Positions 6,894 through 32,186 of a stretch of 32,822 nucleotides of DNA are shown here, piece after piece. Made by a program: the position numbers and the translations under genes. The notes under the pieces are model-generated. The model was not told the DNA's origin. It ran no database searches and saw nothing but the letters and a program-made list of their open reading frames with translations. How positions within the stretch are numbered: the first letter of the stretch is position 1; every line of letters begins with the position of its first letter. Source of the DNA: Ignisphaera sp. (GTDB lineage: Archaea > Thermoproteota > Thermoprotei_A > Sulfolobales > Ignisphaeraceae); NCBI GenBank assembly GCA_038889075.1, contig JAWAHS010000008.1:1-32822 (forward strand), written 5' to 3'.

Positions 6894-8099
6894 TTATGCC
6901 TGCTGTAAACATCTACATCTATAGAATAGATATAGAGATGCTGTACCTAGGATGGTTAGTAGTGCTATAGCCATTGGGAAGAGGGGTGTATAGCTCTTAA
7001 AGCTATCTTTAATGAACCCTGTAAGGGCTGTACCTGTAAATACTGCTGTAGCGTATCCGGTCATTATGGCTGGCCAACCCAGTGGGTAGTTTCTCGGATC
7101 TGATAGTCTTCTCACCTCTGTTGGGGCTATAACAAGCCATCCACCTAGGTGTATATATAGTATAATTGATGATGCTGTGAATATGTAGGGTGATGGGTAG
7201 AGCCATAGTAGAGCTAGTGCTATAATGGTTAGTAGATATGCGATTGTTGCTGAATATCTAAAGCCCTTTACATCGATAATTCTGCCATAGATAAGCCTAC
7301 CTAAACCATTGAATAGAGCGAATAGAGCCATTAGAAATACCAGTAGATCTGAACTGATTTTAGCTAGCTCAATTCCTATCTGCTTTATGTACCCAACATA
7401 TGAAAGTGGGATGAGTAGACCAGTGAAATAGGCTATCCAGATAATCCAGAAGCACCTCCTAGATAGAATTTCAAGTAGAGCTCCTTTAATATCGGAATGC
7501 CCTCGGCCATCATCTATCCTAGGATTTCTTTTTAGGAGTAGAGCAAGCAATATAGCGAGAAATAGATAGGCTACACCTACAATTCTCAATCCTTGATTAA
7601 ATCCATATCTTCCGATCACATACTCAAACAGAGGTGTAGCGAGAAGGGAGGCTATACCGAAACCAGTCCGTGCAATTCCTATAGCAAGTCCAGGTCTCTC
7701 AGGCATCCACGATGTTGCTATAGGAAGGGTCATACTGTCCATAAGGGCTATACCGAAACCTGTAATGAAAAATAGAATTGAAAATAAGACTATGTTTCTC
7801 TCGACAAAGCTTGCTCCAACAAATCCCAACCCAAATAATACTGACCCCAGATATAGAGGTATCTTCTCCGAACCGAATTTCCTATCGAGAACACCGCCAA
7901 CAATCATAAGATAGCCATATGCACCCAAAGCAGCAAAGTAAGGAAAACCAGCCTCTGCTGTCGATAGATTCCACAGTCTCTGAAGCTCGTAACCAATTAC
8001 ACTATAGGAATAAAATGTACCGCCCAAGAACGTCACTAAGAAGCATAAGGCTAGGTGCAGCCATTTACGGTATCCATGGCCGTTATCTCTACCATCCAT
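6894..8099 (-). CDS. MFS transporter, oxalate/formate antiporter (OFA)/monocarboxylate-like
   Basis: About 12 hydrophobic segments; GGVLDRKFG motif A; WMPERPGLAIGI and FNGLGRLIYGRIID are typical of the OFA family. Confidence 0.85.
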   Translation of the reverse strand: MDGRDNGHGYRKWLHLALCFLVTFLGGTFYSYSVIGYELQRLWNLSTAEAGFPYFAALGAYGYLMIVGGVLDRKFGSEKIPLYLGSVLFGLGFVGASFVERNIVLFSILFFITGFGIALMDSMTLPIATSWMPERPGLAIGIARTGFGIASLLATPLFEYVIGRYGFNQGLRIVGVAYLFLAILLALLLKRNPRIDDGRGHSDIKGALLEILSRRCFWIIWIAYFTGLLIPLSYVGYIKQIGIELAKISSDLLVFLMALFALFNGLGRLIYGRIIDVKGFRYSATIAYLLTIIALALLWLYPSPYIFTASSIILYIHLGGWLVIAPTEVRRLSDPRNYPLGWPAIMTGYATAVFTGTALTGFIKDSFKSYTPLFPMAIALLTILGTASLYLFYRCRCLQQA

Positions 8100-8464: not shown

Positions 8465-9631
8465 CTATATGTTTAGTGCCTGGGATAGGTCTTCTATTAT
8501 ATCATCTGCATTCTCCAGCCCTACAGATAGCCTCACCATATTCTCTGAAATGCCTAGCTTAGCTCTATGCTCAGGCTCTATAAACATCGCACCTGCCTTA
8601 ACTGGTATAACAGCCATGGATTCCGTTCCCCCTAGGCTTGGGCATCTCTTAACTATCTTCAGCTTTTTCATGAAGTTTACAACATCCTGGTACGATCCTT
8701 TTATCTTAAAGCTTACAACTCCTCCAAATAGTGGTTTCTCAAAGATCTTCTTTGCTATATTGTGATATGGGTTGCTCTGCAACCCTGGGTACATGACCTC
8801 CTCAACCCTACTGTGGTTCTCTAGATATTCAGCAACAGCCTTGGCATTACTGCTGTGTTTCTCAAATCTGATTTCAAGGGTCTTCACCCCTCTTAGAATC
8901 ATGTAGGCTTCGAATGGCTGTAGAATTCCTCCGAGCATCCTCCTCCACTCCCATAGAGCAGCAGTATCCCTTCTACATCCAGCTATAGCACCACCAACGG
9001 CATCGTTGTGTCCACCGAAATACTTTGTCATACTGTGTATAACGAGTCTTGCACCGTATTTAACAGGCTTTAGTATAACTGGTGTTGTAAATGTATTATC
9101 TATAACAAGTGCAGTTCTATCCAAATCAATGTGCTTAGATACGTAGTCTATATCTATAATCTTGTTTGTAGGATTCGTCATAACCTCTAGAAACACCATC
9201 GATGTAGTTCTATCGACAGCTTCAGCTATAGCTTCAGCCGATGGCCATACCTTCCTAATCTCTATACCGAGTTTAGGTGCAATGCTGTTGAGTAAAGCAA
9301 ATGTTGAGCTGTAGAGCTCCATAGGTAGAACAATCTTATCACCAGGCTTCAAACTCCATATAAATGCCGTTGACTGTGCCGCCATACCGCTATTAAAGGC
9401 TAGCGCATCCTCTGTAGCTTCAAGTTTAGCAACAACTTTCTCTAGGGCTCTCGTAGTCGGATTTTCTTCTCTTCCATACCTGAGGTAGTTTCCTCTATCT
9501 GTAAATATAGCCTCCCCCAATTCATAGTCTATGTATTCGTACACTACACTGAGGTAGATAGGTGGTATATGCGAACCGATGCCATCCCTATGTCCATGCC
9601 CATGGATAGCATTTGTAGAGAGTCCGGCCAA
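8465..9631 (-). CDS. Cystathionine gamma-synthase/gamma-lyase family PLP enzyme
   Basis: YGREENPT, FNSGMAA, EVMTNPT, IDNTF, PLP-lysine HSMTKYFGGH, SLGGTES and VRLSVGLE motifs. Confidence 0.92.
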   Translation of the reverse strand: MAGLSTNAIHGHGHRDGIGSHIPPIYLSVVYEYIDYELGEAIFTDRGNYLRYGREENPTTRALEKVVAKLEATEDALAFNSGMAAQSTAFIWSLKPGDKIVLPMELYSSTFALLNSIAPKLGIEIRKVWPSAEAIAEAVDRTTSMVFLEVMTNPTNKIIDIDYVSKHIDLDRTALVIDNTFTTPVILKPVKYGARLVIHSMTKYFGGHNDAVGGAIAGCRRDTAALWEWRRMLGGILQPFEAYMILRGVKTLEIRFEKHSSNAKAVAEYLENHSRVEEVMYPGLQSNPYHNIAKKIFEKPLFGGVVSFKIKGSYQDVVNFMKKLKIVKRCPSLGGTESMAVIPVKAGAMFIEPEHRAKLGISENMVRLSVGLENADDIIEDLSQALNI

Positions 9632-9757: not shown

Positions 9758-10657
9758 CTATCTCGATATCGCTACATATGCACAGCACTCCTCTATAATT
9801 TCAAACCGTGTACCACTCTCAATAAGATACTCCACGGTTGAGTACGAAGGAAATGATAATCCATCGAAACCCAGCTCTAGAGCTTCAACCTCAAGTGGTT
9901 GATAGGCCTCTCCGTGAGGCTTCATACATCCATAGGAGAGCGGTATATCCTTTAGAATCCTTCTAGCATACCTTAGTATTTCAGAGACGTAGCTTGGTTG
10001 TGGAGGGCTGCAATTTTCAAATGGTGTGTTAGAAAGTGGACTGAATACCGCCAGCACTACTGCATTAGGGTACAGCATATTTAGCACATCTATAGCTTGC
10101 TTCTCACCAGATGGCTTTCCACAGTATATACCAATGATTATGTGGGGTACAACCCTTACGGAAAATCTAATCAGATTTCTAATACTATTTATAAAGCTCT
10201 CTGGTGATTCTCTCAGATTTAAAACCTCCCTTATAACCTTCTCCTCAATGGTAAAATCTATCAGTGCTACATCGATCCCCACTTCCTTTAACAGCTGTGC
10301 CCTATATTCATCAACGAGCCCTACATGCATATATATCCTCATCCCAAGCCTCTTAGCATACCTAATTGCATCTACAAAACCTTCGAATGGCACTCGCCCC
10401 CGTACATCGCTACCACCACTTATCAATACGCTTCTAGCTCCACCTCTATACAGCCTCTCAACTATCCTTATCAGATCCTGTGGTGTTCTAACAGGTGTCA
10501 TTCTCTCGAGAATTCTAGCATTACAGTGCTTACAGCGTAGTGCACAGTGGTGCCCAGTTAGACTAACTGGTGGATATTCGTTGAACTCTCTTCCAAGGTG
10601 GGGAACATATAGATAGTGATTGCTTGGTACGAATATCTTAATGATGACTATCACCAT
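9758..10657 (-). CDS. lipS1: Lipoyl synthase component LipS1 (biotin synthase-like radical SAM)
   Basis: CALRCKHC radical SAM motif; YGCMKP and C-terminal EECCA match the recalled LipS1 GC(M/A)R and CC motifs; divergent from lipS2 and next to a lipoate ligase. Confidence 0.8.
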   Translation of the reverse strand: MVIVIIKIFVPSNHYLYVPHLGREFNEYPPVSLTGHHCALRCKHCNARILERMTPVRTPQDLIRIVERLYRGGARSVLISGGSDVRGRVPFEGFVDAIRYAKRLGMRIYMHVGLVDEYRAQLLKEVGIDVALIDFTIEEKVIREVLNLRESPESFINSIRNLIRFSVRVVPHIIIGIYCGKPSGEKQAIDVLNMLYPNAVVLAVFSPLSNTPFENCSPPQPSYVSEILRYARRILKDIPLSYGCMKPHGEAYQPLEVEALELGFDGLSFPSYSTVEYLIESGTRFEIIEECCAYVAISR

Positions 10658-10682
10658 CTACGCTATGTCTTCCGAGACTGCG

Positions 10683-10698
10683 TTTTTAAATTTTAAAA
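10683..10698. promoter_or_regulatory. Back-to-back TATA boxes of the divergent lipS1/lipS2 promoter
   Basis: TTTTTAAATTTTAAAA is self-complementary. The minus-strand box lies about 25 nt from the lipS1 ATG, consistent with a leaderless mRNA. Confidence 0.6.
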
Positions 10699-10763
10699 CT
10701 TAGAATACAGTCTACTGCAGCACAACTCTGTTAACAGAGCTCTGCCAGTGAAGGGGCTATGCA

Positions 10764-11861
10764 ATGAACTGTGAATCTCCACAGTGTATTAGATTGAGTA
10801 GGGCTTCAGATATCTTCCTAGGATTCAGCCACGGTAGATTCTATAGAAATGCTTTTCCACTTACAATCAATACACTTCTACACTTCAATAGCGGTTGCAT
10901 AGCAAATTGTCTATACTGTGGACAGGCTCGAGGAGTCGCTACCTTGGCAATGTGTAGAACACTGATACGCGTCGATTGGCCTCTAAGACCTTTAGAGGAT
11001 GTTATTGAAAGATTGTTGAAGATTGTTGGAAGCGGTACATCGTTTAGACCTTATAGGATCTGCGTCTCGGATATAGAGCATCCAAAAGCTGTTGATGCTA
11101 CGAAAGAGGTTGTGCGTATACTGTGGCTAAGAGTTGGTATACCGATATCTGCTCTCATAAGTCCTACACAGTTCTCGATAGATGATATGAGGGAGCTGAA
11201 GAGCATTGGTGTTGAGAGGATCGGTATAGCAGTTGATTGTGCAACAAAGGAGTTGTTTGAAATGTTGAGAGGATCTAGGGTTGGAGGTCCACATAGGTGG
11301 GAGAGACACCTTGAGGGGATAGGCGATGCTGTGGAGGCTGTTGGACGCGGAAGGGTAGGGGTACATCTCATAGTCGGTCTCGGTGAGTCTGAGGAGGACG
11401 CTGTTAGACTGATTCAGCAGGTGCATGATATGGGTGCTGAGACCCATCTATTTTCATTCTACCCCGAGCAGGGCACAGCTCTAGAGGGATGGATAAGGCC
11501 ACCGATATCACAGTATAGGCGTGTACAGCTAGCCAGATACCTAATAGATAACAATATATCTAGATTTGAGTGGATGAAATTTGATGCAGCAGGACGGATA
11601 GTCGACTTTGGAATACCTCTACCAGAGCTAGAGGAGGTGGTTGAGAGTGGGCTACCCTTTACCACATCCGGATGCCCAGGATGCAATAGACCATATGCAA
11701 ATGAGAGACCCAGTGAGTTTCCGCGAAACTTTCCATATATACCTAGGGGTTTGGAGATTAAGCGAATAAGAAAGCAGCTCACCACCTATCTACCTATAGA
11801 AAATGGTATCGAAAGTCTCAAGAGTTACCTAAATAGGGTGGGGTATGGATGGAGTATATGA
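10764..11861 (+). CDS. lipS2: Lipoyl synthase component LipS2 (radical SAM)
   Basis: CIANCLYC radical SAM motif; TTSGCPGCNRP matches the recalled LipS2 signature TxGCPxC(N/D)RP; overlaps the ligase gene. Confidence 0.85.
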   Translation: MNCESPQCIRLSRASDIFLGFSHGRFYRNAFPLTINTLLHFNSGCIANCLYCGQARGVATLAMCRTLIRVDWPLRPLEDVIERLLKIVGSGTSFRPYRICVSDIEHPKAVDATKEVVRILWLRVGIPISALISPTQFSIDDMRELKSIGVERIGIAVDCATKELFEMLRGSRVGGPHRWERHLEGIGDAVEAVGRGRVGVHLIVGLGESEEDAVRLIQQVHDMGAETHLFSFYPEQGTALEGWIRPPISQYRRVQLARYLIDNNISRFEWMKFDAAGRIVDFGIPLPELEEVVESGLPFTTSGCPGCNRPYANERPSEFPRNFPYIPRGLEIKRIRKQLTTYLPIENGIESLKSYLNRVGYGWSI

Positions 11862-12892
11862 GAGGTCTATTCCATAGAGCGCCAGCAGACTTTCTGCTAG
11901 CTTCAGAAGAGGTTCTAACACGTGGTGTTGGCCTAGGCCTATCACCTCCAACGGTAAGGGTCAACATCTTTGACCCCCCGGCTGTACTCGTTGGATACAA
12001 CCAAGATGTGTATGAGGAGGTTAATGTAGAGGAGGCAATGAAGCTCGGTTTTTCAGTAAATCGCAGACCGTCAGGTGGTGGTGCTATTCTGATGTATGAG
12101 GATAGCCCTGGCTGGGAGATATGGCTTCCACAATCGTTAGTAGAAGGATTGGATATAGGTCAAATATATGTAGAGTTAGCGAAAATTCCATTAACAGCGC
12201 TGAGGTATCTTGGAATAGAGAATGCAAGGCTTAGGGGGAAGAACGATATAGAGGTAGGGGGGCGCAAGATCTCCGGAACCGGTCTCTACATGGATTCCGG
12301 GGGGATAATGTTCTGCGGTACAGTACTGCTAGATTTCAATACCAGATTAATGCTACAGCTACTTAGGCTACCTATAGAGAAGATGAGTGATAAGGATGTA
12401 GAGACCTTTGAGAAGCGAATAGTTACAGCTAGGGAGATTCTAGGTTCCAAGCCTTCAGTTAGAGATGTTTTAGAGGCTTTTAGAAGAGCGGTAGGCGATG
12501 TACTTAAGGTTGAGGTTGCTGATGGTGATCTGAATGAGTGGGAGTTGGGAGAGTTGCAGAGGACTGTAGAAAAGTATAGGAGTAGCAACTGGATCTATGG
12601 ATACAAAGCTACAGATGGAAGAACCTTTACAAAGATCTGTAAATATAAGACAGCAGCAGGTCTTCTGAGAATCCATGTAAAGGTATTTGAAAATATTTTA
12701 GAACAGATTCTACTAACAGGTGACTTCTTTGCATATCCATCTACTGCAATACATGAGCTCGAAGCTAATCTGAAATGGATAGCTGTAGATGATGTACCTC
12801 AGAAAGTTATAGAGTTTGCAGATAGAATGACGATACACGGACTCTCAATATATGAACTAGCTAATTTGATAGAGAACTGTATAAAGGATTAA
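11849..12892 (+). CDS. Lipoate-protein ligase/octanoyl transferase with fused C-terminal LplB-like domain
   Basis: RRPSGGGA, KNDIEVGGRKISGTG and GTVLLD catalytic motifs; C-terminal GLLRIHV...LTGDFF domain. Confidence 0.9.
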   Translation: MEYMRGLFHRAPADFLLASEEVLTRGVGLGLSPPTVRVNIFDPPAVLVGYNQDVYEEVNVEEAMKLGFSVNRRPSGGGAILMYEDSPGWEIWLPQSLVEGLDIGQIYVELAKIPLTALRYLGIENARLRGKNDIEVGGRKISGTGLYMDSGGIMFCGTVLLDFNTRLMLQLLRLPIEKMSDKDVETFEKRIVTAREILGSKPSVRDVLEAFRRAVGDVLKVEVADGDLNEWELGELQRTVEKYRSSNWIYGYKATDGRTFTKICKYKTAAGLLRIHVKVFENILEQILLTGDFFAYPSTAIHELEANLKWIAVDDVPQKVIEFADRMTIHGLSIYELANLIENCIKD

Positions 12893-12910
12893 AAATAGAT
12901 ATCGGCTACA

Positions 12911-13348
12911 CTACCTTTTAATCAATCTAGCTATCTGGCTTCTATACCACTCTACAGCCTGCGGATCAGAACCTCTAATCAGGTTCTTCAAATCCTCATC
13001 GAGATTCGAGGACTCAATAACGGCTATCCACCCAGCGCCATATGGATCGCCCATAATCAGCTTAGGATTCTTTCTAAGCTCACCATTCACCTCTACAATT
13101 TTCCCCGATACCGGGGATTCCACTGGACCGACCCACTTTGCCGACTCTATTACAGCGATTGGCTGACCCTGTTTAACAACGGTTCCAACAGGTCTAAGAC
13201 GTACAAACACAATTTCACCCGCAGCTTTAGCACCAACATCGCTTAACCCAATCCTAACCCTATTTGAAGCCTCTACCCTTGCCCAGCTAAGACCCCTAGA
13301 CCAGTAGTATAGCTCCTCCTTTAACTCAAATGAGTCCACTCTTACCAT
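12911..13348 (-). CDS. Glycine cleavage H-like lipoyl-carrier protein (LbpA-type motif)
   Basis: Lipoyl-lysine motif IESAKWVGPVESPVSGKIVEVN and DPYGAGWI; no gcvT/gcvP/E3 genes in the window. Confidence 0.9.
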   Translation of the reverse strand: MVRVDSFELKEELYYWSRGLSWARVEASNRVRIGLSDVGAKAAGEIVFVRLRPVGTVVKQGQPIAVIESAKWVGPVESPVSGKIVEVNGELRKNPKLIMGDPYGAGWIAVIESSNLDEDLKNLIRGSDPQAVEWYRSQIARLIKR

Positions 13349-13577
13349 AGGACATCCAGCTAAACTAGCCTTGGATAGGGGTTAAAACTGTTTAGTATTC
13401 TTACAGATCACCTTGATCCAGAACCGTTACAGGTAGAGAATTGCAATCAGCTTACACCATTCCTTTGCATGGGATGCATCCTTCGCTTTTAGGTTTCCTC
13501 AAGTACACTTCATGAGAGATCCTATAGAGGACTATTTGTAGAGGAATGGAATTCGCAGTATGTGTAGTTGAAAGTGT

Positions 13578-14894
13578 TTAAAGGGTCTGCGTCCTATTCT
13601 GTTCCCCCCTTTCTTCAGGAACTCCATATGGATTGCCATACTCTTCAATACTTCTAGCTACATTTACTACAGGTGGTGGTATATATCCTGATTCTACAAG
13701 TGTTTTCCTAAGCTTTAGAATCATCTCTGGAATGTCTATCTCCATAGGGCATACAGATTTACACCTACCACACTGGAGGCATGTAAATGCTAGAGGTGCT
13801 GCTCTATCAAGACCGTATATGAATGACGTCCATATCGCACCTATACCACCTGAGTAAACATAGCCCCAGATTTGCCCACCCAATTCACGGTATACCGGAC
13901 ATATGTTGAGGCATGTACCACACTTTAGACACATTAGAGCTTCTTTAAAGTTTGAATCTCTAAGCATCTTCGTTCTACCATTGTCTAGGAGAACTACATG
14001 AAGTTCTCGAGGACCGTGTGCACCGCGGATAGAGACCAGCTCTATATCTGATGTTGAGCTAGGGCCTGTTATGAGTGAAATGTAGGAGGGCATCTTGAGA
14101 CCAACAGCATTTGGTATTATTAGCATAGATGCTACTACAGCATCCTCAACCGTTGGATACACCTTCTCTATACCTGCAACCACTATATGGATAGGTGGTG
14201 CATTTGAAACAAATCTAGCATTACCCTCGTTCTCCACGATCACTACAGTACCTGTATCAGCTGCAATAGCGTTTGCCCCCGTTACACCTGCATCAGCCTT
14301 AAAGAACTTCTCCCTAAGATACTCACGAACAGCTTTCACACAGCTACTGTGGTCAGGTGGCACCTCCCTATTAAGGAATTTCGATAGAGATTCGGCAATC
14401 TCATCTATGGTTAGATGTATTGCTGGTACAACTGGATGGGAGGGTCTTTCACCCCTTATCTGAATGAGAAATTCACCAAAGTCGGTTTCAATAACATCGA
14501 GACCACCTTCAATAAGTGCCCTATTTAGAAAGATCTCCTCCGTAACCATGGACTTACCTTTTATAACTAGTCTTGCTCCTCTACTACTAAGTACGTCAAC
14601 TACGTATCTAGCTGCCTCCTCACCTGTACTGGCATAGTGGAACACTGCTCCAGCTCTTTCAATATTTTCCCTAGCCATCTCTATCAGATCATCGATGTGC
14701 TCTAGAGACCATAACCTGGCCTCTCTAACACGCTTCCTATAGTATTCATAGTATGGAAGTTCCTTCAGTAGCTGAAACCTTGCTCTAGGAAAGCGGGTAG
14801 CGACCTTTCCAAGGGCACTTCTCAGCATATCGTTTCCAAGAGCATCTACAACTCTTTCAACATACTCACTGAACCACTCTGCCATGGTAATCAA
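13578..14894 (-). CDS. LutB/LldF-like LUD-domain Fe-S protein
   Basis: KGKSMVTEEI, ETDFGEF, HPVVPAIH, ENEGN, ITGPSSTSDIE and GAHGP motifs; two ferredoxin motifs CLKCGTCLNICP and CLQCGRCKSVCP. Confidence 0.88.
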   Translation of the reverse strand: MITMAEWFSEYVERVVDALGNDMLRSALGKVATRFPRARFQLLKELPYYEYYRKRVREARLWSLEHIDDLIEMARENIERAGAVFHYASTGEEAARYVVDVLSSRGARLVIKGKSMVTEEIFLNRALIEGGLDVIETDFGEFLIQIRGERPSHPVVPAIHLTIDEIAESLSKFLNREVPPDHSSCVKAVREYLREKFFKADAGVTGANAIAADTGTVVIVENEGNARFVSNAPPIHIVVAGIEKVYPTVEDAVVASMLIIPNAVGLKMPSYISLITGPSSTSDIELVSIRGAHGPRELHVVLLDNGRTKMLRDSNFKEALMCLKCGTCLNICPVYRELGGQIWGYVYSGGIGAIWTSFIYGLDRAAPLAFTCLQCGRCKSVCPMEIDIPEMILKLRKTLVESGYIPPPVVNVARSIEEYGNPYGVPEERGEQNRTQTL

Positions 14895-15634
14895 CCTAGA
14901 GCACTGTATACAAGATCCACTACATCTCGAACCTCTATAGAGATACCATAGATGGTCTCAGCAACAGAAGCGGCATTATGTAGCGTCTTGACACAAGTGG
15001 GGCAGGCTGTAACAACAGCCTGTATATCGAGACCAGCTAAATCTTCAACTAGTCTATCAACAGCTATTTGAGAAGCCAGTGGGGGTATTACTAGGCGCAA
15101 CAGACCACCACCTCCGCAACACCTTGAGTACTTCCCCATGGCCATCTCAGGTAGCTCGATAAGGGATACCCCCGGTATGGATTTTACAACTTCCCTAGGC
15201 TCGCTATAGATTCCTAGATGCCTACCCAGATCACACGGATCGTGATATGCAACCCTTAGGCTGAGACCCCTCTCTAGCTTAAGAGCACCTCTATCCAGTA
15301 GCTGGTGGAGAAGTTGTGTAGTATGGAGCACTTTCAATTGCTTGAAACCGTATCTAGGGTAGAGCTGCTTAAATGCCCTTAGACAACCAGGGCAGTGTGT
15401 AACAACGAGATCGTACTCCATATTCATAAGACTCTCAACAACTCTCGAAGCATATTTCCTAAACTTTTCTTCATAGCCTGCGAGTAGAAGAGGATAGCCG
15501 CAGCACCATTCATCACTAAGCATTGCTACATTGATACCCGCTTTCCTAAATATGTATCCAATCTTCGATATAGTATCGGAGGCTATATTCCTTAGCGTAC
15601 AACCTCTCCAGAAAACCACCGTTTGATATTCCAC
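14891..15634 (-). CDS. Tandem CCG-domain Fe-S protein (LutA/GlpC/HdrB-D-like)
   Basis: Two CCG modules: FWRGC..WCCG..HCPGC and YHDPC..RCCGGGG..TACPTC; overlaps the lutB-like start by 4 bp. Confidence 0.88.
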   Translation of the reverse strand: MEYQTVVFWRGCTLRNIASDTISKIGYIFRKAGINVAMLSDEWCCGYPLLLAGYEEKFRKYASRVVESLMNMEYDLVVTHCPGCLRAFKQLYPRYGFKQLKVLHTTQLLHQLLDRGALKLERGLSLRVAYHDPCDLGRHLGIYSEPREVVKSIPGVSLIELPEMAMGKYSRCCGGGGLLRLVIPPLASQIAVDRLVEDLAGLDIQAVVTACPTCVKTLHNAASVAETIYGISIEVRDVVDLVYSALG

Positions 15635-15789
15635 TTTTCTACACCATCACTATACACCACTATGTTATAAGTTTTAAACTTATCTACTAGAGGATCAGCC
15701 ATAGCTATATGCCGTATATAGCCATACATAAATCTTCATAGAAAATGCATCTATGGCATCCTAGTCTTTAGAAGAGCGATACTAGGTAC

Positions 15790-16878
15790 CTAGCGTCTGT
15801 GTATGCAGTATGTGTAGCATGCTTCAGCTAGGTACTCTATGTTTTCTAGTGGTGTTGGTGGATATACCTCTATGTGTAGCATTAGCCCTCCCGATTCTGT
15901 ACCAAGCTTTTCTACAGCATTTTTGATGTGGCTATGTATCTCCTCCCGCGTTCCATAGGGTATTAGGTGCTGTCTATCTATATCCAGATCTATACACACC
16001 CTTCCCTTGAGCTTCTGTGCAATATTTTCGATACCATTTATAGTATCCTGTATATTTAGAATATCTATACCGGCTTCAAGAATAGCGTCTACCAGTGGCA
16101 TTACCATTCCGTCGCTGTGGAAGTATATTAGCGCATCCATATCTCTCACCTCATCAAAGAATTTTCTATAGTATGGTAGAAAGTATTTTCTAAGATGCTG
16201 TAATCTAATAAATGGGCTCTCCTGACCTCCCAAATCCTCTAGAAATGCAACCATATGTATCCCTCTATATCTCTTGGCTATCCTAAGCAGCCCGTATTGG
16301 TATTCTGCAACCTTTTCTAGTGCTAGAATAATCCTCTCATCCCCTCTATAGATGGCGTAGACTAGTTTATTCAGTGGGATTACATCCATTAATTTCTGGA
16401 ATAGAAAGTGGTGGAGGCTGAATACAACTAACCTACCCTGCTCTCTAAGCCTGTCAAAATAGCTAAACAGCTCCTCCCATGATATCATAGGTTTTGGATC
16501 AGCATAGCCTATGGGGTAGCCAGCCTCAGGCTCAGGTAGATTCCACTCTCTCACTTTATTCAAATCGTCTAGAGGGTACTGATAGGGTTCACCACCGAGA
16601 CCCTTAATCTTAAACCTCCAGACAGTGCCATATACATCCCTAGTAAACCTATCCTCAAAAACAACACCAGGTCTATCATCAAATACTATAGTGCTGGGAT
16701 CGTGCTCAGGAAAGGTTAGCGGATACCTCTTCATCAACCCGATAATCTCATCCCTATAGGTGTTTAAAACAGGACGCGTTATAATAATTCTACACGGGGT
16801 GAATTGAGGATGGTGAAACCGTGCAGCCTTCAGAAAAGCCTCTCTATATAGGCTAGCAGTGTAGATACCGCTATCCAG
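15790..16878 (-). CDS. Uroporphyrinogen decarboxylase/MtaA-superfamily protein (probable CTG start)
   Basis: DVYGTVW, EDLGGQ, FHSDG, GIDILN and GTREEI motifs. The frame stays open 47 codons upstream of the ORF-track start (16737) to a CTG at 16878 preceded by GAGGTG. Confidence 0.8.
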   Translation of the reverse strand: MDSGIYTASLYREAFLKAARFHHPQFTPCRIIITRPVLNTYRDEIIGLMKRYPLTFPEHDPSTIVFDDRPGVVFEDRFTRDVYGTVWRFKIKGLGGEPYQYPLDDLNKVREWNLPEPEAGYPIGYADPKPMISWEELFSYFDRLREQGRLVVFSLHHFLFQKLMDVIPLNKLVYAIYRGDERIILALEKVAEYQYGLLRIAKRYRGIHMVAFLEDLGGQESPFIRLQHLRKYFLPYYRKFFDEVRDMDALIYFHSDGMVMPLVDAILEAGIDILNIQDTINGIENIAQKLKGRVCIDLDIDRQHLIPYGTREEIHSHIKNAVEKLGTESGGLMLHIEVYPPTPLENIEYLAEACYTYCIHRR

Positions 16879-19609: not shown

Positions 19610-20011
19610 GTGGTGCGTGAGGAGGTTCGTAGGCTTTGGCTTCAAGCTCTTGAGGATCTACGTACATCGGAGATTCTTCTAGAGGTAGGTAGATACTATG
19701 CTTCGGTATTCTTTGCTGAACAAGCTGCTGAAAAAGCCTTGAAGGCACTGTATATACATGTTAAAGGCGAACCGTCTCCTAAAACTCATAATCTTGTAGA
19801 ACTGTTAGAGGTTCTCGGTATAGGAGGCGAGGATCTTGTTGATGCAGCTATGGATCTAACTCCAGAGTATATCGTTACAAGATATCCGGATGCTGCTAGT
19901 GGCGTACCTGCAAGTCTATATAATGAGAGAATGGCTAGAGAACATCTAGAGAAAGCAAAACTGATTATAGATTTCTGTAGAAAGTCTCTAGAAGGTGATG
20001 GGGATGGATAG
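19610..20011 (+). CDS. HEPN domain protein (putative toxin of an MNT-HEPN pair)
   Basis: YYASVFFAEQAAEKALKA, KTHNLVEL and YIVTRYPD motifs of the archaeal HEPN family; overlaps the MNT gene. Confidence 0.9.
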   Translation: MVREEVRRLWLQALEDLRTSEILLEVGRYYASVFFAEQAAEKALKALYIHVKGEPSPKTHNLVELLEVLGIGGEDLVDAAMDLTPEYIVTRYPDAASGVPASLYNERMAREHLEKAKLIIDFCRKSLEGDGDG

Positions 20012-20318
20012 AGATATTGAGAAGATAATAGAGGTTTTGAAGGATAGCATACCTGATGTAAAGATAGTTCTATTTGGTTCACGAGCCCGTGGAAATGCTC
20101 TAAAAACATCAGATATAGATATAATTGTTGTATCTAGAGTTTTCGAAACCATGCATTTTACAGATAGAGCTTCCTATATACTAAAGATCCTGTGGAAAAA
20201 CAGAGCCCTACCCAAAGTAGATATAGACATTCTATGCTATACACCAGAAGAATTTGAGAAAAAGAAAAAAGAAATAGGAATTGTAAGAGAAGCACTAAGC
20301 CATGGCATCGAGCTATAG
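19995..20318 (+). CDS. Minimal nucleotidyltransferase (MNT) antitoxin
   Basis: LFGSRARG...SDIDIIVV and DILCYTPEEF motifs; the likely start is the ATG at 20004 after a GGTGA RBS. Confidence 0.9.
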   Translation: MMGMDRDIEKIIEVLKDSIPDVKIVLFGSRARGNALKTSDIDIIVVSRVFETMHFTDRASYILKILWKNRALPKVDIDILCYTPEEFEKKKKEIGIVREALSHGIEL

Positions 20319-27164: not shown

Positions 27165-27776
27165 CTAGGCATTGATGTATTTCTGCATCTTTATATGTAT
27201 TTTCCTTGCTATTGATCTATATATTTTACTTCTACTTGATCTATGTATGCTTTCTAGACAGAGCTCAATGTGCTTTACAAGCTCTGCTCTTTTTTTCTTT
27301 GATGTATATGGTATTTTTGTAAGCCATACAAGAGCTTCTATAATCGATGCTGAAGCCCTTGTAAATCCCCTTGGAATTCTTCTGAGGATCTTAACTGCCA
27401 AAGGCTTTGCATACATGAGAATACTGTTCCTCTCACTATCTGTAGATTCTATAGCGAATTCGATTATTGCATCACATACATCCTCTCTGTTTGTAAATAG
27501 CTTTATAGCTCTATCCTTTTCAAATATCGATAGATAGAACAGCCTGGCATCCTGTGTAATACAGATGCAGCCACTTCTGACCAGATTACCTACAATAGCT
27601 TCATATGTTCTACCACCTCTGTATACCTTTGACACTATATAGCCATCCCTAAGCTTAAACCCGAGGGGTACCACATTAACTATACTACTGTCATCGCCAT
27701 AGAGGAGAGCTACGGCCTCTAGATATGTAGTGCTCGAGAAGCCTATTCTTTTAAGCAACCTCACAGTGTTTTCCAT
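27165..27776 (-). CDS. DUF447-like protein (split-barrel fold), pterin-cluster associated
   Basis: YLEAV..NVVPLG..VYRGGRTYE and C-terminal FTRASASIIEALVWLTK resemble DUF447 'NRA..A.IEA.V..TR'; divergent from mptE. Confidence 0.7.
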   Translation of the reverse strand: MENTVRLLKRIGFSSTTYLEAVALLYGDDSSIVNVVPLGFKLRDGYIVSKVYRGGRTYEAIVGNLVRSGCICITQDARLFYLSIFEKDRAIKLFTNREDVCDAIIEFAIESTDSERNSILMYAKPLAVKILRRIPRGFTRASASIIEALVWLTKIPYTSKKKRAELVKHIELCLESIHRSSRSKIYRSIARKIHIKMQKYINA

Positions 27777-27880
27777 AGCTCTACAACCCAACAGCTAATT
27801 GACTCTATACCACACTACAGTTTATATAGCTATTGAGAATCTGCTTAAGTTAATCGAGTAGCTGTTTAAGGTCCTCTACA

Positions 27881-28627
27881 GTGTCGTGGCTTATAGATAG
27901 AAATTTATGGCTAGAGCTGTACAGCTCTATAAAGAGTATGCTAAACCTCTCCTTTGATCAAGACCAGATGGCTACCGATACACTAAGTAGCATACTCAGC
28001 GCATTGCCTAATGCTATAGATGTTCAACAGCTGAGAAATGCTATAAGTAGTCGCTGTGTGTTTATCTTGGGGCCAGCTCTAAATATAGAGCACGATTTTA
28101 GAAAGGCTATTGAATTAGGATTGACCGACCGACTTCCTACCATTGCCATCGATGGTACTGCGACATTCCTTTATGAAAAGGGTTTTATTCCAGATATCAT
28201 AGTCTCCGATCTCGATGGAGATCCAAACCATATAGTGTATCTAAATAAAAGGGGCTCTATAGCCATAGTTCATGGACATGGAGATAATATAGGTGAGATA
28301 AGGATGTGGGTTCCTAGATTCAGGGGATCTGTAATAGGTTCTACACAAGTTGAGCCAAAGCCGTATGTCTATAATTTTGGAGGGTTTACAGATGGCGATA
28401 GAGCTCTATTCATAGCATATGCACTTGGTGTTAGAAAGGCTATTATCGGTGGTATGGATTTTAGAGGTCCTATAGGTAGGTACTCCATAGTGTATAGGAG
28501 AAAGGATGAGGATATTAAGAGGGTAAAGCTATCCATAGCTATAAAACTTATAAGCATGCTAATCTCATGGGGTATGGAGATAGATGCTCTATCTGATCCA
28601 GGTATTCCAGGTGTTAAGGTGATATAG
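27881..28627 (+). CDS. mptE: 6-hydroxymethyl-7,8-dihydropterin pyrophosphokinase
   Basis: IVSDLDG, HGHGDN, GSTQ, NFGGFTDGDRA and GMDF motifs. Confidence 0.9.
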   Translation: MSWLIDRNLWLELYSSIKSMLNLSFDQDQMATDTLSSILSALPNAIDVQQLRNAISSRCVFILGPALNIEHDFRKAIELGLTDRLPTIAIDGTATFLYEKGFIPDIIVSDLDGDPNHIVYLNKRGSIAIVHGHGDNIGEIRMWVPRFRGSVIGSTQVEPKPYVYNFGGFTDGDRALFIAYALGVRKAIIGGMDFRGPIGRYSIVYRRKDEDIKRVKLSIAIKLISMLISWGMEIDALSDPGIPGVKVI

Positions 28628-28628
28628 T

Positions 28629-29045
28629 TTGAATGATCCAGCTAAAAAGTACTTCTCTCCAAAGATTTCAGATAGAGATCGGGCTATCTTTGAAGCTGGA
28701 ATAGCTCTCGGTATGGCAATCCACCAGTTTACAGGAATACCAATAAGATTTCGTGAAGAGGTAGAGCTTCTAAGGAAGGTTATCGAGTATGCCATAACAT
28801 CACAGCCATTTAAAAAGGAGGCTCATGTAAAAATAGACATCGATATCAACGGTACTGAGAGATCTAGAGACCCCTACAAATATACTACGCTAAAAAGCAG
28901 AAATATGGATATAACAATAGTAGTTGAGTATGGAAATGCTATTGTAAGAGCTAGACTAAAATACATACCTGAACTCGATTACAGTCTCGCATACATTGAA
29001 GATGTAGTTGAGAAATGCTCTACCACAGCCATTTCTACTGAGTAA
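28629..29045 (+). CDS. mptD: Archaeal dihydroneopterin aldolase
   Basis: SDRDRAIFEAGIALGMAIHQFTGIP, SQP, Y-x-x-L and ELDYSLAYI motifs; directly after mptE. Confidence 0.9.
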   Translation: MNDPAKKYFSPKISDRDRAIFEAGIALGMAIHQFTGIPIRFREEVELLRKVIEYAITSQPFKKEAHVKIDIDINGTERSRDPYKYTTLKSRNMDITIVVEYGNAIVRARLKYIPELDYSLAYIEDVVEKCSTTAISTE

Positions 29046-29130
29046 ACAGTTGAAATTAAGAGACGAAGCAATACCATCTATAGTATAGAATCCAGAGCCA
29101 ATACCAAAATGGTACAACCCATATAAATTC

Positions 29131-29172
29131 TAGGGCTACTACGCTGTACTTATAGGAAGTGGAGTAGCCCTA
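29131..29172. repeat. Perfect 10-bp inverted repeat between mptD and dmrX
   Basis: TAGGGCTACT (29131-29140) and AGTAGCCCTA (29163-29172), with a 22-nt spacer that can pair further (ACTT/AAGT). Confidence 0.6.
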
Positions 29173-29257
29173 TAGCAGTGATTCCAAACACATTGGGGAA
29201 AGCATCGTAAAGGTATAAAATAGTAGATGAGTAGCATTATCTAAAGGTGATCTACTT

Positions 29258-29992
29258 TTGATAAATATTGCTTGGTGTATAACTGGAGGAGGTTTGAATC
29301 TGAGAGCTGTAGCCTCTACTCTAGGGGTTATTAGAGAGAGATATCGAGTTAATGTAACGCTATTCCTAACTAAATGGGGGTTTGAGGTGTCTAGAATATT
29401 TGGTGTTCTAAATATTCTTAAGAGTATTGCATCTGGTGGCTACTATCAGGAGTTTCTCGTTGAAGAACAGGGTATGTACTACATTGGTAGACTCAATATG
29501 AAGAGGTACTCTATCCTCATTATAGCACCTGCAACGGCAAATTCTGTAGCAAAGATGGTGCTGGGAATAGCTGACAATATTGCATCCGCATTGTATTCCC
29601 AGGCAATTAAGAGTAGCATTCCGGTGGTTATTCTACCGACCGATATTCCAGGTAACGATGGTTTTATAGAGACTGAAACACCGTGCTATATAGATAGAGC
29701 TGTGTGTAGCCTTGATTCATGCGGTGGGTGTTTGGCTGTAGGGGTATGTCCAGTAAATGCTATCGTTACCGTAGATGGAGTTGTGAGGATAGATCTATCG
29801 AAGTGTATTGGATGTGAACACTGTATATATGTGTGTCCTAGGGGGGCGGTAAGGTGTTGGGAGAAGGTAAAGCTTATGCCAAGGGATGTGGATGTTCAGA
29901 ATATCGAGAAGCTGAGGAGGTCTCCATATACATATGTTGTTAGTAGTGTTTCGGAGCTCGAAGATACTGTGAAGAGGATTCTAAAACTATAA
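29258..29992 (+). CDS. dmrX: Dihydromethanopterin reductase (acceptor)-like iron-sulfur flavoprotein
   Basis: HFCD flavoprotein motifs IAWCITGGG and IIAPATANSVAKMVLGIAD, with an inserted 2x[4Fe-4S] domain (C..CGGC..CP, CIGCEHC..CP); pterin-cluster context. Confidence 0.8.
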   Translation: MINIAWCITGGGLNLRAVASTLGVIRERYRVNVTLFLTKWGFEVSRIFGVLNILKSIASGGYYQEFLVEEQGMYYIGRLNMKRYSILIIAPATANSVAKMVLGIADNIASALYSQAIKSSIPVVILPTDIPGNDGFIETETPCYIDRAVCSLDSCGGCLAVGVCPVNAIVTVDGVVRIDLSKCIGCEHCIYVCPRGAVRCWEKVKLMPRDVDVQNIEKLRRSPYTYVVSSVSELEDTVKRILKL

Positions 29993-29995
29993 CAT

Positions 29996-31162
29996 CTACT
30001 CTTTACATAGATTGGATCTGTGTACTGTTTCTATATACGCTCTTCTAACTCTTTCAACGAAATTCTGTGCCCTTGCATGGATAATGTAGTCAACAGATGT
30101 TCCACAGGCTCCCTCTATATCCATATGCTTAACCAAATCCCTGAAGTATCCACCAACAATACCCTCACCAATAGCTGCATATCCCTGTGCTGCCTCCTTA
30201 GCCTTTGTAACACCCTTTAACCCTCTAAGTGTTGTTACATTGAGATCCTTAAACAGCTCCCTAAGATGCTGTAAAACAGTAGAATTTCTACTGTGCCTAC
30301 CTGTTAGAACTATAGTATCTGCCTTTGGTGATGAGATTCGCATTCTAGCTATATCCTTGGCCACACCCTCTATAAATGCGCTAAACATTGATGTGTAAGG
30401 CTCTTCACCAGCTTCATAACCCTTAACTATGGTCTCTAGATCAAATGTTTTAGCGCCGTGGAATACACCTCCGTAGAAGACATCCCAACGACTCCACATA
30501 CCCACTCCTACGACAACTTCGAGATCTAGTGCTCCAGCTGTGAGAGTACCTATAGAGGCATAGCTACCCCCTATACCATCGACAACGAAACCCCTTTCAA
30601 CGGCTATAGATGCTGCGTATCCAAATCCAAGCTCCGTAACTACTATATTTATCTCTCTAAAGTCTTTGCCAAGCCTTTCACTCATTTCATACACTGCTAG
30701 AAATGCTGAAGCAAGCTTGTCAACGGTACCCATATCAACCTTATTAATCTTTCTATATCTAGGCACGGTACGTAGATGTATTACAGCAGGTAGAAATACC
30801 ACTCTCTCTCTGTAGTTTTTAACAAGGTGCGACACAGTCTTTACAATAGCATCGTAGACCCATATACCCACCTCACCAGCCTTAGCCCCTGCTCTAATGG
30901 CATCTCCTGTGCTAAGTAGTATAATTTCGGTAGAAAACCTCTCAGCATCTCTAATATTATCGCCAAAGGTGATGGGTACACCATAGCCGGAGGGAGCTAC
31001 AATGTACTCTGGCTCTAACCTATCTATAGCTTCAATAAGTATTTGAGGTTCCTTAGCTATTGAAAATGTATCGAGGCTCTGCTCAACCTTAACGGAACCA
31101 TCCTCTAATACAATAATATCAAAGGTCTTTGTACCAGGATCGATACCTACAACTCGCACCAT
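29996..31162 (-). CDS. DUF1464-like ASKHA-fold (acetate/butyrate kinase-like) protein
   Basis: VVGIDPGTKTFD phosphate-1 motif, APSGYG, KINKVDMGTVDK, ELGFGY, VDGIGG and KEAAQGYA motifs; start set at the ATG at 31162 after a GGGGTGG RBS. Confidence 0.8.
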   Translation of the reverse strand: MVRVVGIDPGTKTFDIIVLEDGSVKVEQSLDTFSIAKEPQILIEAIDRLEPEYIVAPSGYGVPITFGDNIRDAERFSTEIILLSTGDAIRAGAKAGEVGIWVYDAIVKTVSHLVKNYRERVVFLPAVIHLRTVPRYRKINKVDMGTVDKLASAFLAVYEMSERLGKDFREINIVVTELGFGYAASIAVERGFVVDGIGGSYASIGTLTAGALDLEVVVGVGMWSRWDVFYGGVFHGAKTFDLETIVKGYEAGEEPYTSMFSAFIEGVAKDIARMRISSPKADTIVLTGRHSRNSTVLQHLRELFKDLNVTTLRGLKGVTKAKEAAQGYAAIGEGIVGGYFRDLVKHMDIEGACGTSVDYIIHARAQNFVERVRRAYIETVHRSNLCKE

Positions 31163-31231
31163 ACCTACCACCCCTAAATCAATAGGATCCACAGGACCGT
31201 ACCACAGTCACTGGCGTAGCGATTAAAAACC

Positions 31232-31239
31232 TTTATAAA
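31232..31239. promoter_or_regulatory. Palindromic TATA box in the divergent DUF1464/mptA intergenic region
   Basis: TTTATAAA located between two divergent starts, each with an RBS. Confidence 0.55.
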
Positions 31240-31298
31240 TACATAAAGCATTTACCAATCTTAGAGCATATCGAGTTGTAGAGTAGGGTGATAGTAGT

Positions 31299-32186
31299 AT
31301 GAATTCCAGTGGTGTTCCACCGGATGTACAGTCCTCTAAACCGTTGTACAGCATTCCCATAGATCAAGTTGGTGTAAAGGGTGTTTACAGAAGGGTGTGC
31401 ATTGGTGGTTCTAGGGGAAGCACTTGTCTAGATACATATATAGACATCCTAGTTGATCTCCCCAAGGCTCAGCGAGGGATCCATGTGTCTAGAAATATAG
31501 AAGCAGCACTAGATGTGTTTAGCATTATTGAATACGCTAGCTTTACATCTCTTGAGGAAGCTATTGAGAGTCTATGTAGAGAGTTGCTCACTAGACATAG
31601 TTATGCTAGTTATGCCGAGGCAAAACTTTCGACAACTTTTCTATATGAGTATAGAGATAGCGATTTAGATTTAAAGGAGAACATACCTGTTAAACTATCC
31701 ATAAAATCCAGGGTTTCTAGAGGGGATAGTAGTGTCCATAGAAAACTGTGTATAGAGGTTATCGGTATGACCGTGTGCCCGTGCGCTCTCCAATTATGTA
31801 GCTATACACTTAATACAGTAGGCTATGCGCCTTCGCATACCCAAAGAGCAAAGCTAAAGATATGCATATCTACAGTGAATAGCTTCATAGATGTTGCAGA
31901 GCTTATAGAGATAGCTTTGAATTCCTTCTCCATACCAGTCTTCAGTTATCTTAAACGTGACAAGGAGTGTAAGATGATTCTAAAGGGATTTGGAAATGCA
32001 AAGTTTGCTGAAGATGTTGTTCGCACTGCTCTCTACGGTCTGTATGAGAGATTCGGTAGGAAATTAGCTCCAGATAGTATGGTGTACATTAGTATTAGGA
32101 GCTTTGAAAGCATACATCCATTCGATCTATTTGTTGCCACTAGGTACAGTATGGGAGAATTGGCTAATTATCTTTCAGCTGGCTAG
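31299..32186 (+). CDS. mptA: GTP cyclohydrolase MptA (FolE2 family)
   Basis: PDVQ, RGIHVSR, GMTVCPCA, SHTQRA, KFAEDVVR and ESIH motifs. Confidence 0.92.
   Translation: MNSSGVPPDVQSSKPLYSIPIDQVGVKGVYRRVCIGGSRGSTCLDTYIDILVDLPKAQRGIHVSRNIEAALDVFSIIEYASFTSLEEAIESLCRELLTRHSYASYAEAKLSTTFLYEYRDSDLDLKENIPVKLSIKSRVSRGDSSVHRKLCIEVIGMTVCPCALQLCSYTLNTVGYAPSHTQRAKLKICISTVNSFIDVAELIEIALNSFSIPVFSYLKRDKECKMILKGFGNAKFAEDVVRTALYGLYERFGRKLAPDSMVYISIRSFESIHPFDLFVATRYSMGELANYLSAG

Follow-up and report, generated by a model that had tools for sequence, protein, structure and literature searches.

Why would an archaeon keep a full set of lipoate assembly genes for a single carrier protein that has no known client? 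The question is raised by a 32,822-nucleotide stretch of an Ignisphaera sp. genome, hereafter the window (positions 1-32822 of contig C8 in genome G000; 1.95 Mb in 25 contigs, 99.58% complete), in which genes for two lipoyl synthase subunits, a lipoate:protein ligase, and a solo H-protein-like carrier lie beside a LutAB-type oxidoreductase. We propose, with about an even chance of being right, that the lipoyl group of the carrier would shuttle electrons, as a dithiol/disulfide pair, between LutAB and a heterodisulfide reductase-hydrogenase (Hdr-Mvh) complex encoded on the same contig. What was observed in its support is the gene content, the absence of the classical lipoate enzymes, synteny, joint inheritance, the clade of the carrier, and the intactness of its lysine and of the cysteine motifs. 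The six genes of the module are listed below, with profile scores in bits against the cut-offs of Pfam, NCBIfam, and TIGRFAM models.

9758..10657, minus strand: lipS1, radical-SAM lipoyl synthase subunit (NF053742 234.9 bits, cut-off 230; Radical_SAM 48.1 bits)
10764..11861, plus strand: lipS2, second radical-SAM lipoyl synthase subunit (NF053743 236 bits, under the cut-off of 270)
11849..12892, plus strand: fused lipoate:protein ligase Lpl(AB) (PF21948 LplA-B_cat 112.2 bits)
12911..13348, minus strand: LbpA-type lipoyl carrier of 145 aa, annotatable as GcvH, with lipoyl-lysine K71 (GCV_H 116.7 bits)
13578..14894, minus strand: LutB-like subunit with a LUD domain and a 4Fe-4S dicluster domain (LUD_dom 176.7 bits; Fer4_8 50.9 bits)
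14891..15634, minus strand: LutA-like subunit with two CCG domains, sites for noncubane 4Fe-4S clusters (CCG 107.1 bits over 2 stretches)

All six genes were identified where the initial annotation had grouped them, and the coordinates agree with its description of the H-protein gene as co-oriented with, and downstream of, the LutB/CCG pair: the carrier gene starts 229 bases past the lutB stop on the same strand. The lutA and lutB genes overlap by 4 bases, and lipS1 and lipS2 are divergent, with a 106-base AT-rich spacer between them. The C-terminus of the ligase (residues 265-325) scored 42.1 bits on the LplB model, below the cut-off of 65; since an LplA-B catalytic domain and an LplB-like C-terminus share one open reading frame, we call the ligase fused. 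Against the LipS-linked ligases of relatives bearing the sulfur-oxidizing Hdr-like (sHdr) system it scored 198-222 bits, but against a second ligase type only 78 bits, which places it nearer to the former; lipS2 scored 631-644 bits to its orthologues in congeners. The grouping of the six genes goes beyond chance, because the block is syntenic in all three other congeners that have it.

A domain search of the open reading frames in the window identified no gcvT, gcvP, 2-oxoacid dehydrogenase E2, dihydrolipoamide dehydrogenase (E3), or hdrA gene, as the initial annotation had also reported, and its suggested genome check for gcvP, gcvT, lpdA, and sHdr likewise found none. The GCV_T (PF01571), GDC-P (PF02347), and 2-oxoacid_dh E2 domains had 0 matches each in the genome. 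E3 was not found in the genome either: the single Pyr_redox_dim protein is CoA-disulfide-reductase-like, with 418.7 bits there versus 133.5 bits on Lpd, where the cut-off is 408.8. The carrier is the sole H-protein and the sole lipoyl domain in the genome, and the only other biotin/lipoyl domain belongs to a BCCP-like protein beside a methylmalonyl-CoA-decarboxylase-like gene. The lack of any such partner in a genome that is 99.58% complete rules out, for the H-protein, service to glycine cleavage, to a 2-oxoacid dehydrogenase, or to E3, and the proposed independence of the carrier from glycine cleavage and E3 thus held. We rejected a glycine cleavage role (no GcvT/GcvP, no E3, carrier outside the GcvT-linked clade), a lipoyl-relay role (no other lipoyl domain to relay to), and a 2-oxoacid dehydrogenase role (no E2). 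Because the classical partners are absent genome-wide, the full assembly set serves a single carrier without a known client.

Membership in an sHdr system was also rejected. The genome encodes only two CCG proteins, LutA and one HdrB; DsrE had 0 matches, and the three TusA genes are all on other contigs, so that, judged on DsrE and TusA, no sulfur transferase is linked to the module. The sHdr set C1-B1-A-H-C2-B2 is ruled out because there is one HdrB only and because HdrA is a 687-aa protein with an MvhD domain. McrA (MCR_alpha) had 0 matches in the genome, in a search aimed at the reductase itself. The source organism seems to live by sugar fermentation and not by sulfur oxidation.

The carrier itself stands apart from canonical GcvH. 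Its K71, invariant in 38/38 aligned H-proteins, lies in the motif ES-A-K-W-V-G; the non-canonical group has ES-x-K-W-[VA]-G, versus ES-[VI]-K-[AST] in canonical proteins. The protein carries a net charge of +3 at a pI of 9.3 and has no cysteines, and with its congener orthologues spans +1 to +3 (pI 8.1-9.3), whereas 18 canonical H-proteins are acidic (-3 to -16, pI 4.4-5.2). In a tree of 38 H-proteins, a branch with 100/100 support splits 18 of the GcvT type from 20 others that include the carrier; from the same order, 18 of the 44 high-scoring matches entered the tree sample (20 were fetched, of which 2 stayed out, and 24 were not fetched). The 20 non-canonical sequences comprise the carrier and those of three congeners, the LbpAs of three sHdr-bearing relatives, and carriers that have TfrAB-like, GlcD/CCG, or further CCG enzymes as neighbors. 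The carrier reached 116.9 bits on the GcvH subfamily model of NCBIfam, against a cut-off of 117. It has the GcvH fold with a lipoyl-lysine, and Lpl(AB), LipS1, and LipS2 genes lie alongside, as is typical for LbpA; by tree, motif, and charge it is an LbpA-type protein. Its basic surface appears to match the acidic-versus-basic charge rule for ligase recognition given in the available part of a 2026 preprint (10.64898/2026.10.01.755906). K71 is presumably lipoylated by the cognate Lpl, LipS1, and LipS2.

The neighboring oxidoreductase is a LutA-LutB pair without LutC. The LutB-like protein scored 383 bits on TIGR00273, below the cut-off of 444.8, and its cysteines 322/325/328/332 and 372/375/378/382, forming two CxxCxxCxxxC motifs, are invariant in 5/5 sequences. 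The CCG motifs of LutA (C44 C45 G46, C84, C134, C172 C173 G174, and C214) are invariant in 51/51 aligned LutA sequences. Identity to bacterial homologues is 36-44% for LutB (among the matches listed, at least 80 loci) and 18-26% for LutA, whose nearest solved structures are EtfD (9ojn_A, 82.9 bits) and HdrB (5odc_B, 29.8 bits). LutB holds the one LUD_dom match in the genome, and since it is the only LUD domain, the genome lacks LutC. A hidden Markov model built from 46 bacterial LutC sequences hit only LutB reading frames in this genome and in 27 archaeal loci; the model had 142 hits in the bacterial set and also matches the LUD domain of LutB. Within 8 kb on either side of 80 bacterial LutB loci, among the matches listed, neither an H-protein nor Lpl nor LipS was identified. 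The substrate pair of LutAB is probably lactate/pyruvate. Some archaeal lineages carry LutB-LutA fusions of about 700 aa, judged from open frames of 697-764 aa. Six LutB matches (G039:C3, G331:C20, G256:C22, G387:C16, G268:C45, and G375:C1) were flagged with one in-frame TGA, which may be the stop of the overlapping lutA at the match edge.

The second CCG protein of the genome belongs to a cluster that lies about 3 kb past the end of the window and about 20 kb from the module:

C8:35969-41579 (L003 3147-8757): HdrC, HdrB with 2 CCG, a 687-aa HdrA-MvhD fusion, MvhG, and MvhA (domains Fer4, CCG, HdrA + FlpD, Oxidored_q6, and NiFeSe_Hases)

The scores were 749 bits on HdrA2, 101 bits on VhuD, and 149 bits on HdrB (cut-off 345), all under the equivalog cut-offs. 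By its domains, the cluster encodes the subunits of the bifurcating heterodisulfide reductase/hydrogenase known from methanogens, here in an archaeon that has no methyl-coenzyme M (CoM) reductase; with McrA missing, CoM-S-S-CoB, the heterodisulfide of CoM and coenzyme B (CoB), is not expected as the HdrB substrate. In three congeners, DUF72 and fucose-isomerase-like proteins lie beside hdrC (L003 543-2976, L112 7794-10256, and L113 3502-5917).

Module and cluster are inherited together within the genus. LutB (80-83% identity), the H-protein, LipS1, the LutA-type CCG protein, and orthologous HdrCBA-MvhDGA (>500 bits) were identified in the same 4 of 17 genomes (G000, G009, G012, and G014), and the orthologous Hdr-Mvh cluster occurs in the genus only in these four module-bearing species. 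Thirteen of the 17 lack the module, nine of them at least 93% complete; G016, which belongs to the 13, does have an Hdr-Mvh cluster, but a distant one with an HdrB at only 88 bits. The six-gene kit is a dispensable island, present in 4/17 species of the genus. In all four genomes the order LutA-LutB-carrier / Lpl-LipS2 / LipS1 is identical; lutB and the carrier gene are no more than about 90 bases apart in G009, G012, and G014, and in G014 lipS1 is separated by 1 kb from the end of the Hdr-Mvh cluster. No genome of the genus (0/17) has GCV_T, although 29/31 sampled genera do.

We then compared carriers across a wider sample. In the order (61 genomes) there were 60 H-protein matches of at least 70 bits, which we divided at 125 bits, a split chosen after viewing the gap in the scores. 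The 44 matches at or above 125 bits had GcvT within 5 kb in 25 cases and a CCG domain within that distance in 1; the 16 below it had GcvT nearby in 0 cases and a CCG domain within 5 kb in 9 and within 20 kb in 11. In a phylum sample of 401 genomes, 106 had a carrier match at E<=1e-25, and the best 40 of these matches had, within 5 kb, a CCG-type protein in 16 cases, GcvT in 2, and LutB in 1; at the remaining loci of these 40, three had an adjacent Lpd-like gene and three more look syntenic. Around the closest carrier relatives at 80 metagenome loci, the counts within 5 kb were 31 for a CCG-type protein, 4 for GcvT, and 2 for LutB, and a CCG-type protein lay near the carrier in 21/40 metagenome pieces of at least 6 kb. 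The expectation that carrier-type H-proteins are tied to CCG enzymes was borne out, the clade repeatedly adjoining CCG-domain enzymes in several lineages. Judged by neighborhood, the steady companion of the carrier is the CCG domain as such, above all that of Hdr.

The strongest single case, on gene order, for a link among carrier, LutAB, and Hdr is G197, from another family, in which DUF72, LutA, LutB, carrier, HdrC, HdrB, HdrA, MvhD, MvhG, and MvhA follow one another on one strand. Its LutA has 247 aa with 2 CCG, its LutB has 425 aa and is 48% identical, and the gaps from LutA through HdrB are 5-9 bases. Two metagenome contigs carry LutB-carrier-HdrC-HdrB-HdrA. When 39 rows of LutB were placed in a tree, those adjacent to a carrier fell into two separate archaeal subclades, and the label of carrier adjacency therefore needs two changes on the tree. 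A different DUF72 protein abuts lutA in G197 (L145 8627-9370) and G230 (L181 2512-3252). The view of the module as standing in place of glycine cleavage or sHdr held insofar as both are absent; it does not hold for Hdr as such, since the classical-type HdrABC-MvhADG, which lies beyond the window, is inherited along with the module and, in relatives, fused to it.

Other CCG enzymes take the place beside the carrier elsewhere. In the sister genera (G017, G018, G022, and G023), the carrier gene lies directly ahead of genes for a TfrA-like protein (638 bits) and a TfrB-like protein (297 bits; Fer2 + Fer4 + 2 CCG), names that come from the NCBIfam models NF004900 and NF004898; the contig of G020 breaks off within TfrA, and in G021, G024, and G025 carrier and TfrAB are split by contig ends.

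L012 7639-11351; L013 5760-9427; L016 6971-10654; L014; L015: carrier-TfrA-TfrB operons with gaps of 4-7 bases

By its gene content, the carrier-TfrAB operon is a candidate dihydrolipoyl-protein:fumarate reductase. In G029, Lpl, the carrier, a 676-aa Fer4/CCG protein, an OsmC-like protein, HdrC, HdrB, and HdrA follow in order; the OsmC-like gene (L100 10224-10805), between the 676-aa CCG protein and hdrC, may encode a lipoyl-dependent peroxidase. Three Sulfolobaceae-like relatives (f13) have a known sHdr set 14-16 kb from their LbpA and Lip genes. In other families, carriers occur with DsrE/DsrE/DsrH and Hdr, or with DsrE, DsrC, and sulfite-reductase-like genes (L134 4107-8561; L135 5328-8759; L160 268-2818), and these Dsr-linked loci seem to be versions of the carrier arrangement that are tied to sulfur.

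From these observations we propose the following mechanism. LipS1, LipS2, and the fused Lpl(AB) would build the lipoyl group on K71 of the basic LbpA-type carrier, and the dithiolane of this group, a protein-bound analogue of the heterodisulfide, would be the dithiol/disulfide substrate of two CCG subunits, LutA and HdrB. LutA and LutB would together make up a two-subunit 2-hydroxyacid/2-oxoacid oxidoreductase that has no LutC. Electrons would pass reversibly between lactate/pyruvate, the Fe-S clusters of LutB, the noncubane clusters of LutA, and the lipoyl disulfide or dithiol, and from there between HdrB, the HdrA flavin, and ferredoxin together with the Mvh [NiFe] hydrogenase (H2). In one direction, H2 would drive 2-oxoacid reduction along with ferredoxin reduction, Hdr-Mvh regenerating the dithiol; in the other, reduced ferredoxin would, at low H2, pull the oxidation of lactate to H2, the energetic difficulty that any lactate oxidizer faces. 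The sister-genus TfrAB operons would follow the same logic, with the carrier in place of CoM-SH and CoB-SH. The contact of the carrier with LutA and HdrB, the substrate, and the direction are what we infer from the genes. Standard potentials are about -290 mV for lipoamide, -190 mV for pyruvate/lactate, and +30 mV for fumarate/succinate, -414 mV for H+/H2, and about -450 to -500 mV for ferredoxin. On these values, reduction of pyruvate or fumarate by the dihydrolipoyl-carrier would be downhill.

Each part of this arrangement resembles a known system and departs from it. In the available parts of two papers, LbpA with sLpl(AB), LipS1, and LipS2 is known for sulfur-oxidizing sHdr (Cao et al. 2018, PMC6067878; Tanabe et al. 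2023, PMC10332631). The module shares with sHdr-LbpA the non-canonical GcvH-like carrier, its own Lpl(AB), LipS1, and LipS2 genes, the tie to CCG (Hdr-type) proteins, and the clade. It differs in lacking the sHdrC1B1AHC2B2 set, DsrE, a linked TusA, and LipT, and in having a LutAB-type oxidoreductase and a hydrogenase-linked HdrABC as partners; unlike one LbpA type, the carrier has no cysteines. With the methanogen HdrABC-MvhADG (5odc and 8rvu as sequence hits) the contig shares the same subunits, an HdrB with 2 CCG, and a fused HdrA-MvhD, but McrA is missing and a lipoyl-protein would replace the heterodisulfide.

LutABC is reportedly a lactate utilization system, in work said to be that of Chai and of Pinchuk in 2009. 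As in LutABC/LldEFG, LutA (2 CCG) and LutB (LUD plus ferredoxin domain) are encoded in the usual order by overlapping genes; unlike there, LutC is missing, LutA has diverged, and a carrier gene is attached (0/80 bacterial loci, among the matches listed). LutA is called a putative heterodisulfide reductase whose role is unclear in the available part of Hwang et al. 2013 (PMC3924224).

TfrAB of Methanothermobacter is said, after Heim and colleagues in 1998, to use a thiol pair as donor for organic-acid reduction through a CCG subunit, with the disulfide going to Hdr. The proposed mechanism shares this logic of a CCG subunit and a thiol pair, and the sister genera carry TfrA and TfrB directly after the carrier gene; the donor, however, would be a dihydrolipoyl-protein, not CoM-SH + CoB-SH, and the partner in the window is LutAB.

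The nearest precedent is the Culexarchaeia, in which GcvH is found among HdrB, bifurcating Hdr, hydrogenase, and SdhA genes and was suggested to be the carrier of an unknown disulfide, according to the available part of Kohtz et al. 2022 (PMC9723716). Insofar as that part describes it, the Ehe/HdrA2B2C2/SdhA/GcvH cluster is likewise a GcvH-type gene among Hdr and hydrogenase genes in a non-methanogenic archaeon, but with a membrane-bound hydrogenase and no LutAB. The same part contains no dedicated lipoate assembly genes, H-protein clade analysis, or genome-wide absence test. Our literature search found no paper linking a lipoyl carrier with LutAB or TfrAB; the supplementary occurrence tables of PMC6067878 and PMC10332631, outside that search, may list such archaea. 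The initial annotation had known of no description of the arrangement, and this stands for the pairing of a carrier with LutAB, while the idea of GcvH as an Hdr disulfide carrier had already been voiced, as the available part of PMC9723716 attests.

Several observations weigh against a shuttle between LutAB and Hdr-Mvh. LutB was identified in 167/401 phylum genomes at E<=1e-60, and a general co-occurrence of LutB and carrier across this sample was looked for and not found. The 20 phylum LutB loci closest to ours had LutA adjacent in 20/20 and a carrier in 0/20 (2 were ended by a contig edge), and family f20 has LutB in 29/32 genomes and a carrier match (E<=1e-25) in 0/32. In G039, the closest carrier (63% identity) lies beside a GlcD-like flavoprotein and a Fer4/CCG protein, and its LutB (54%, the closest in the sampled order outside the genus) with LutA is followed by PCNA/primase genes, unlinked to the carrier. 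LutAB can thus work without the carrier in other lineages, because most archaeal LutAB pairs have none nearby. The expected recurrence of the lip-H and LUD/CCG neighborhood was therefore seen in part: it holds in 3/3 congeners with the genes and in one distant lineage, but is absent at most archaeal LutAB loci. The four congeners are kin, and their shared set may be one gain, not four observations. On the potentials given above, lactate oxidation by the lipoyl disulfide would be uphill.

Transcription data count for the proposal, with a caveat. The stretch or part of it was contained in 20/24 listed sequencing runs, from 10 studies, 19 of them hot-spring metagenome or single-organism DNA and one a sediment metatranscriptome. 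The RNA library X17 gave contigs at 10735-12135 (lipS2-lpl), 12309-14350 (the carrier, the 229-base gap, and much of lutB), and 14321-15632 (lutB-lutA); the last stops 2 bases short of the lutA start, and nothing was found in X17 at 15725-16021, where a DNA run continues. RNA runs X23 and X24 had no contig on the stretch, from which nothing is concluded. Since a single transcript cannot be proved from contigs and such libraries may contain DNA, these contigs give only a weak hint that the module is expressed. On the opposing side, a TTTTAA stretch about 35 bases before the carrier ATG, read by eye, lies in the 229-base gap between lutB and the carrier gene, and with it a promoter of the carrier's own is possible.

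These points bear most on an explanation in which the carrier would be a disulfide substrate of HdrB or another enzyme only, LutAB being a neighbor by island or pathway whose electrons would go to ferredoxin, quinone, or HdrA. It draws on the carrier with Hdr-Mvh but without LutAB in G124, G436, G029, and several metagenome contigs, on the wide occurrence of LutAB without a carrier, and on the possible promoter. We nevertheless regard it as unlikely: LutA retains both complete CCG motifs, the thiol/disulfide chemistry module, and is far more diverged from its bacterial homologues than LutB, the carrier gene of G197 sits between lutB and hdrC at gaps of 5-9 bases, and the gap to lutB is short (no more than about 90 bases) in three congeners.

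Very unlikely is a carrier acting as in sHdr-LbpA, in sulfane sulfur handling or with a sulfur-oxidizing Hdr-like complex, with the lut genes unrelated. The carrier does fall in the clade of LbpAs from sHdr-bearing relatives with the same Lpl/LipS1/LipS2 set, and some relatives pair it with DsrE/DsrH, DsrC, or sulfite-reductase-like genes; in this genome, however, two CCG proteins leave no room for a double HdrB/HdrC set, the 687-aa HdrA-MvhD fusion lies beside a [NiFe] hydrogenase, DsrE is absent, and the three TusA genes are on other contigs. Bacterial lipoyl proteins reduce Ohr/OsmC-type peroxidases, and the G029 cluster has its OsmC-like gene, so that the lipoyl-carrier could instead be a thiol reductant for Ohr/OsmC or peroxiredoxin-type oxidant defense, kept reduced by LutAB or Hdr-Mvh; we consider this highly improbable, as no OsmC, Ohr, or peroxiredoxin gene was found in the window or the congener blocks and the partners that recur work in energy metabolism. 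That the carrier is a usual H-protein of glycine cleavage or of a lipoyl relay, with partners too divergent to be recognized or missing from the 25 contigs, is barely credible despite the 116.9 bits on the GcvH model (cut-off 117), given the completeness of the genome, GCV_T in 0/17 genomes of the genus versus 29/31 genera, a position outside the canonical clade, and no other lipoyl acceptor for a relay.

The remaining genes of the window are unrelated to the module; they include a Pst-type phosphate transporter, pterin biosynthesis, a HEPN/nucleotidyltransferase pair, a molybdopterin oxidoreductase, and a UroD-fold protein, the last two of which do not stay beside the module in congeners. We recorded the following:

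6894-8099, minus strand: major facilitator superfamily (MFS) transporter, best model the L-lactate transporter SfMCT (192 bits, cut-off 320), unsyntenic in congeners
8465-9631, minus strand: cystathionine-gamma-synthase-family pyridoxal phosphate enzyme beside lipS1, likewise in G009 and G012, but not G014
15790-16737, minus strand: UroD-fold MtaA-like protein just upstream of lutA, with five paralogues elsewhere in the genome
17181-19148, plus strand: 655-aa molybdopterin oxidoreductase of the formate-dehydrogenase/thiosulfate-reductase kind, upstream of lutA
19610-20318, plus strand: overlapping HEPN and nucleotidyltransferase genes, toxin-antitoxin-like
27165-32186: pterin biosynthesis cluster of DUF447, MptE-like kinase, dihydroneopterin aldolase, ferredoxin-domain flavoprotein, DUF1464, and GTP cyclohydrolase FolE2

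The MFS gene is only a hint at a lactate role of LutAB.

Beyond this genome, we tentatively suggest, as a possibility we rate somewhat below even, that LbpA-type protein-bound lipoate may be a general dithiol/disulfide substrate of CCG enzymes (HdrB, TfrB, LutA, and GlcF/HdrD-like proteins) in non-methanogenic archaea, in the role of CoM-S-S-CoB. HdrABC-MvhADG would then be a bifurcating hub coupling lactate/pyruvate, fumarate/succinate, and other hydroxyacids to H2 and ferredoxin, and sHdr-LbpA would be a specialized offshoot of an older arrangement.

If the shuttle between LutAB and Hdr-Mvh is real, the disulfide substrate of Hdr in organisms without coenzyme M or B would become testable via a few small genes, as would the target of the LutA subunit called heterodisulfide-reductase-like. 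Flavin-based electron bifurcation by Hdr-Mvh would be linkable to lactate, fumarate, and hydroxyacid fermentation in thermophilic archaea, and this genome would offer a clean test case, with its sole lipoyl protein and a dispensable kit found in 4/17 species of the genus. Lipoate would gain a third role, that of an E3-free, protein-bound redox shuttle, beside those of acyl/aminomethyl carrier and sulfur-oxidation cofactor.

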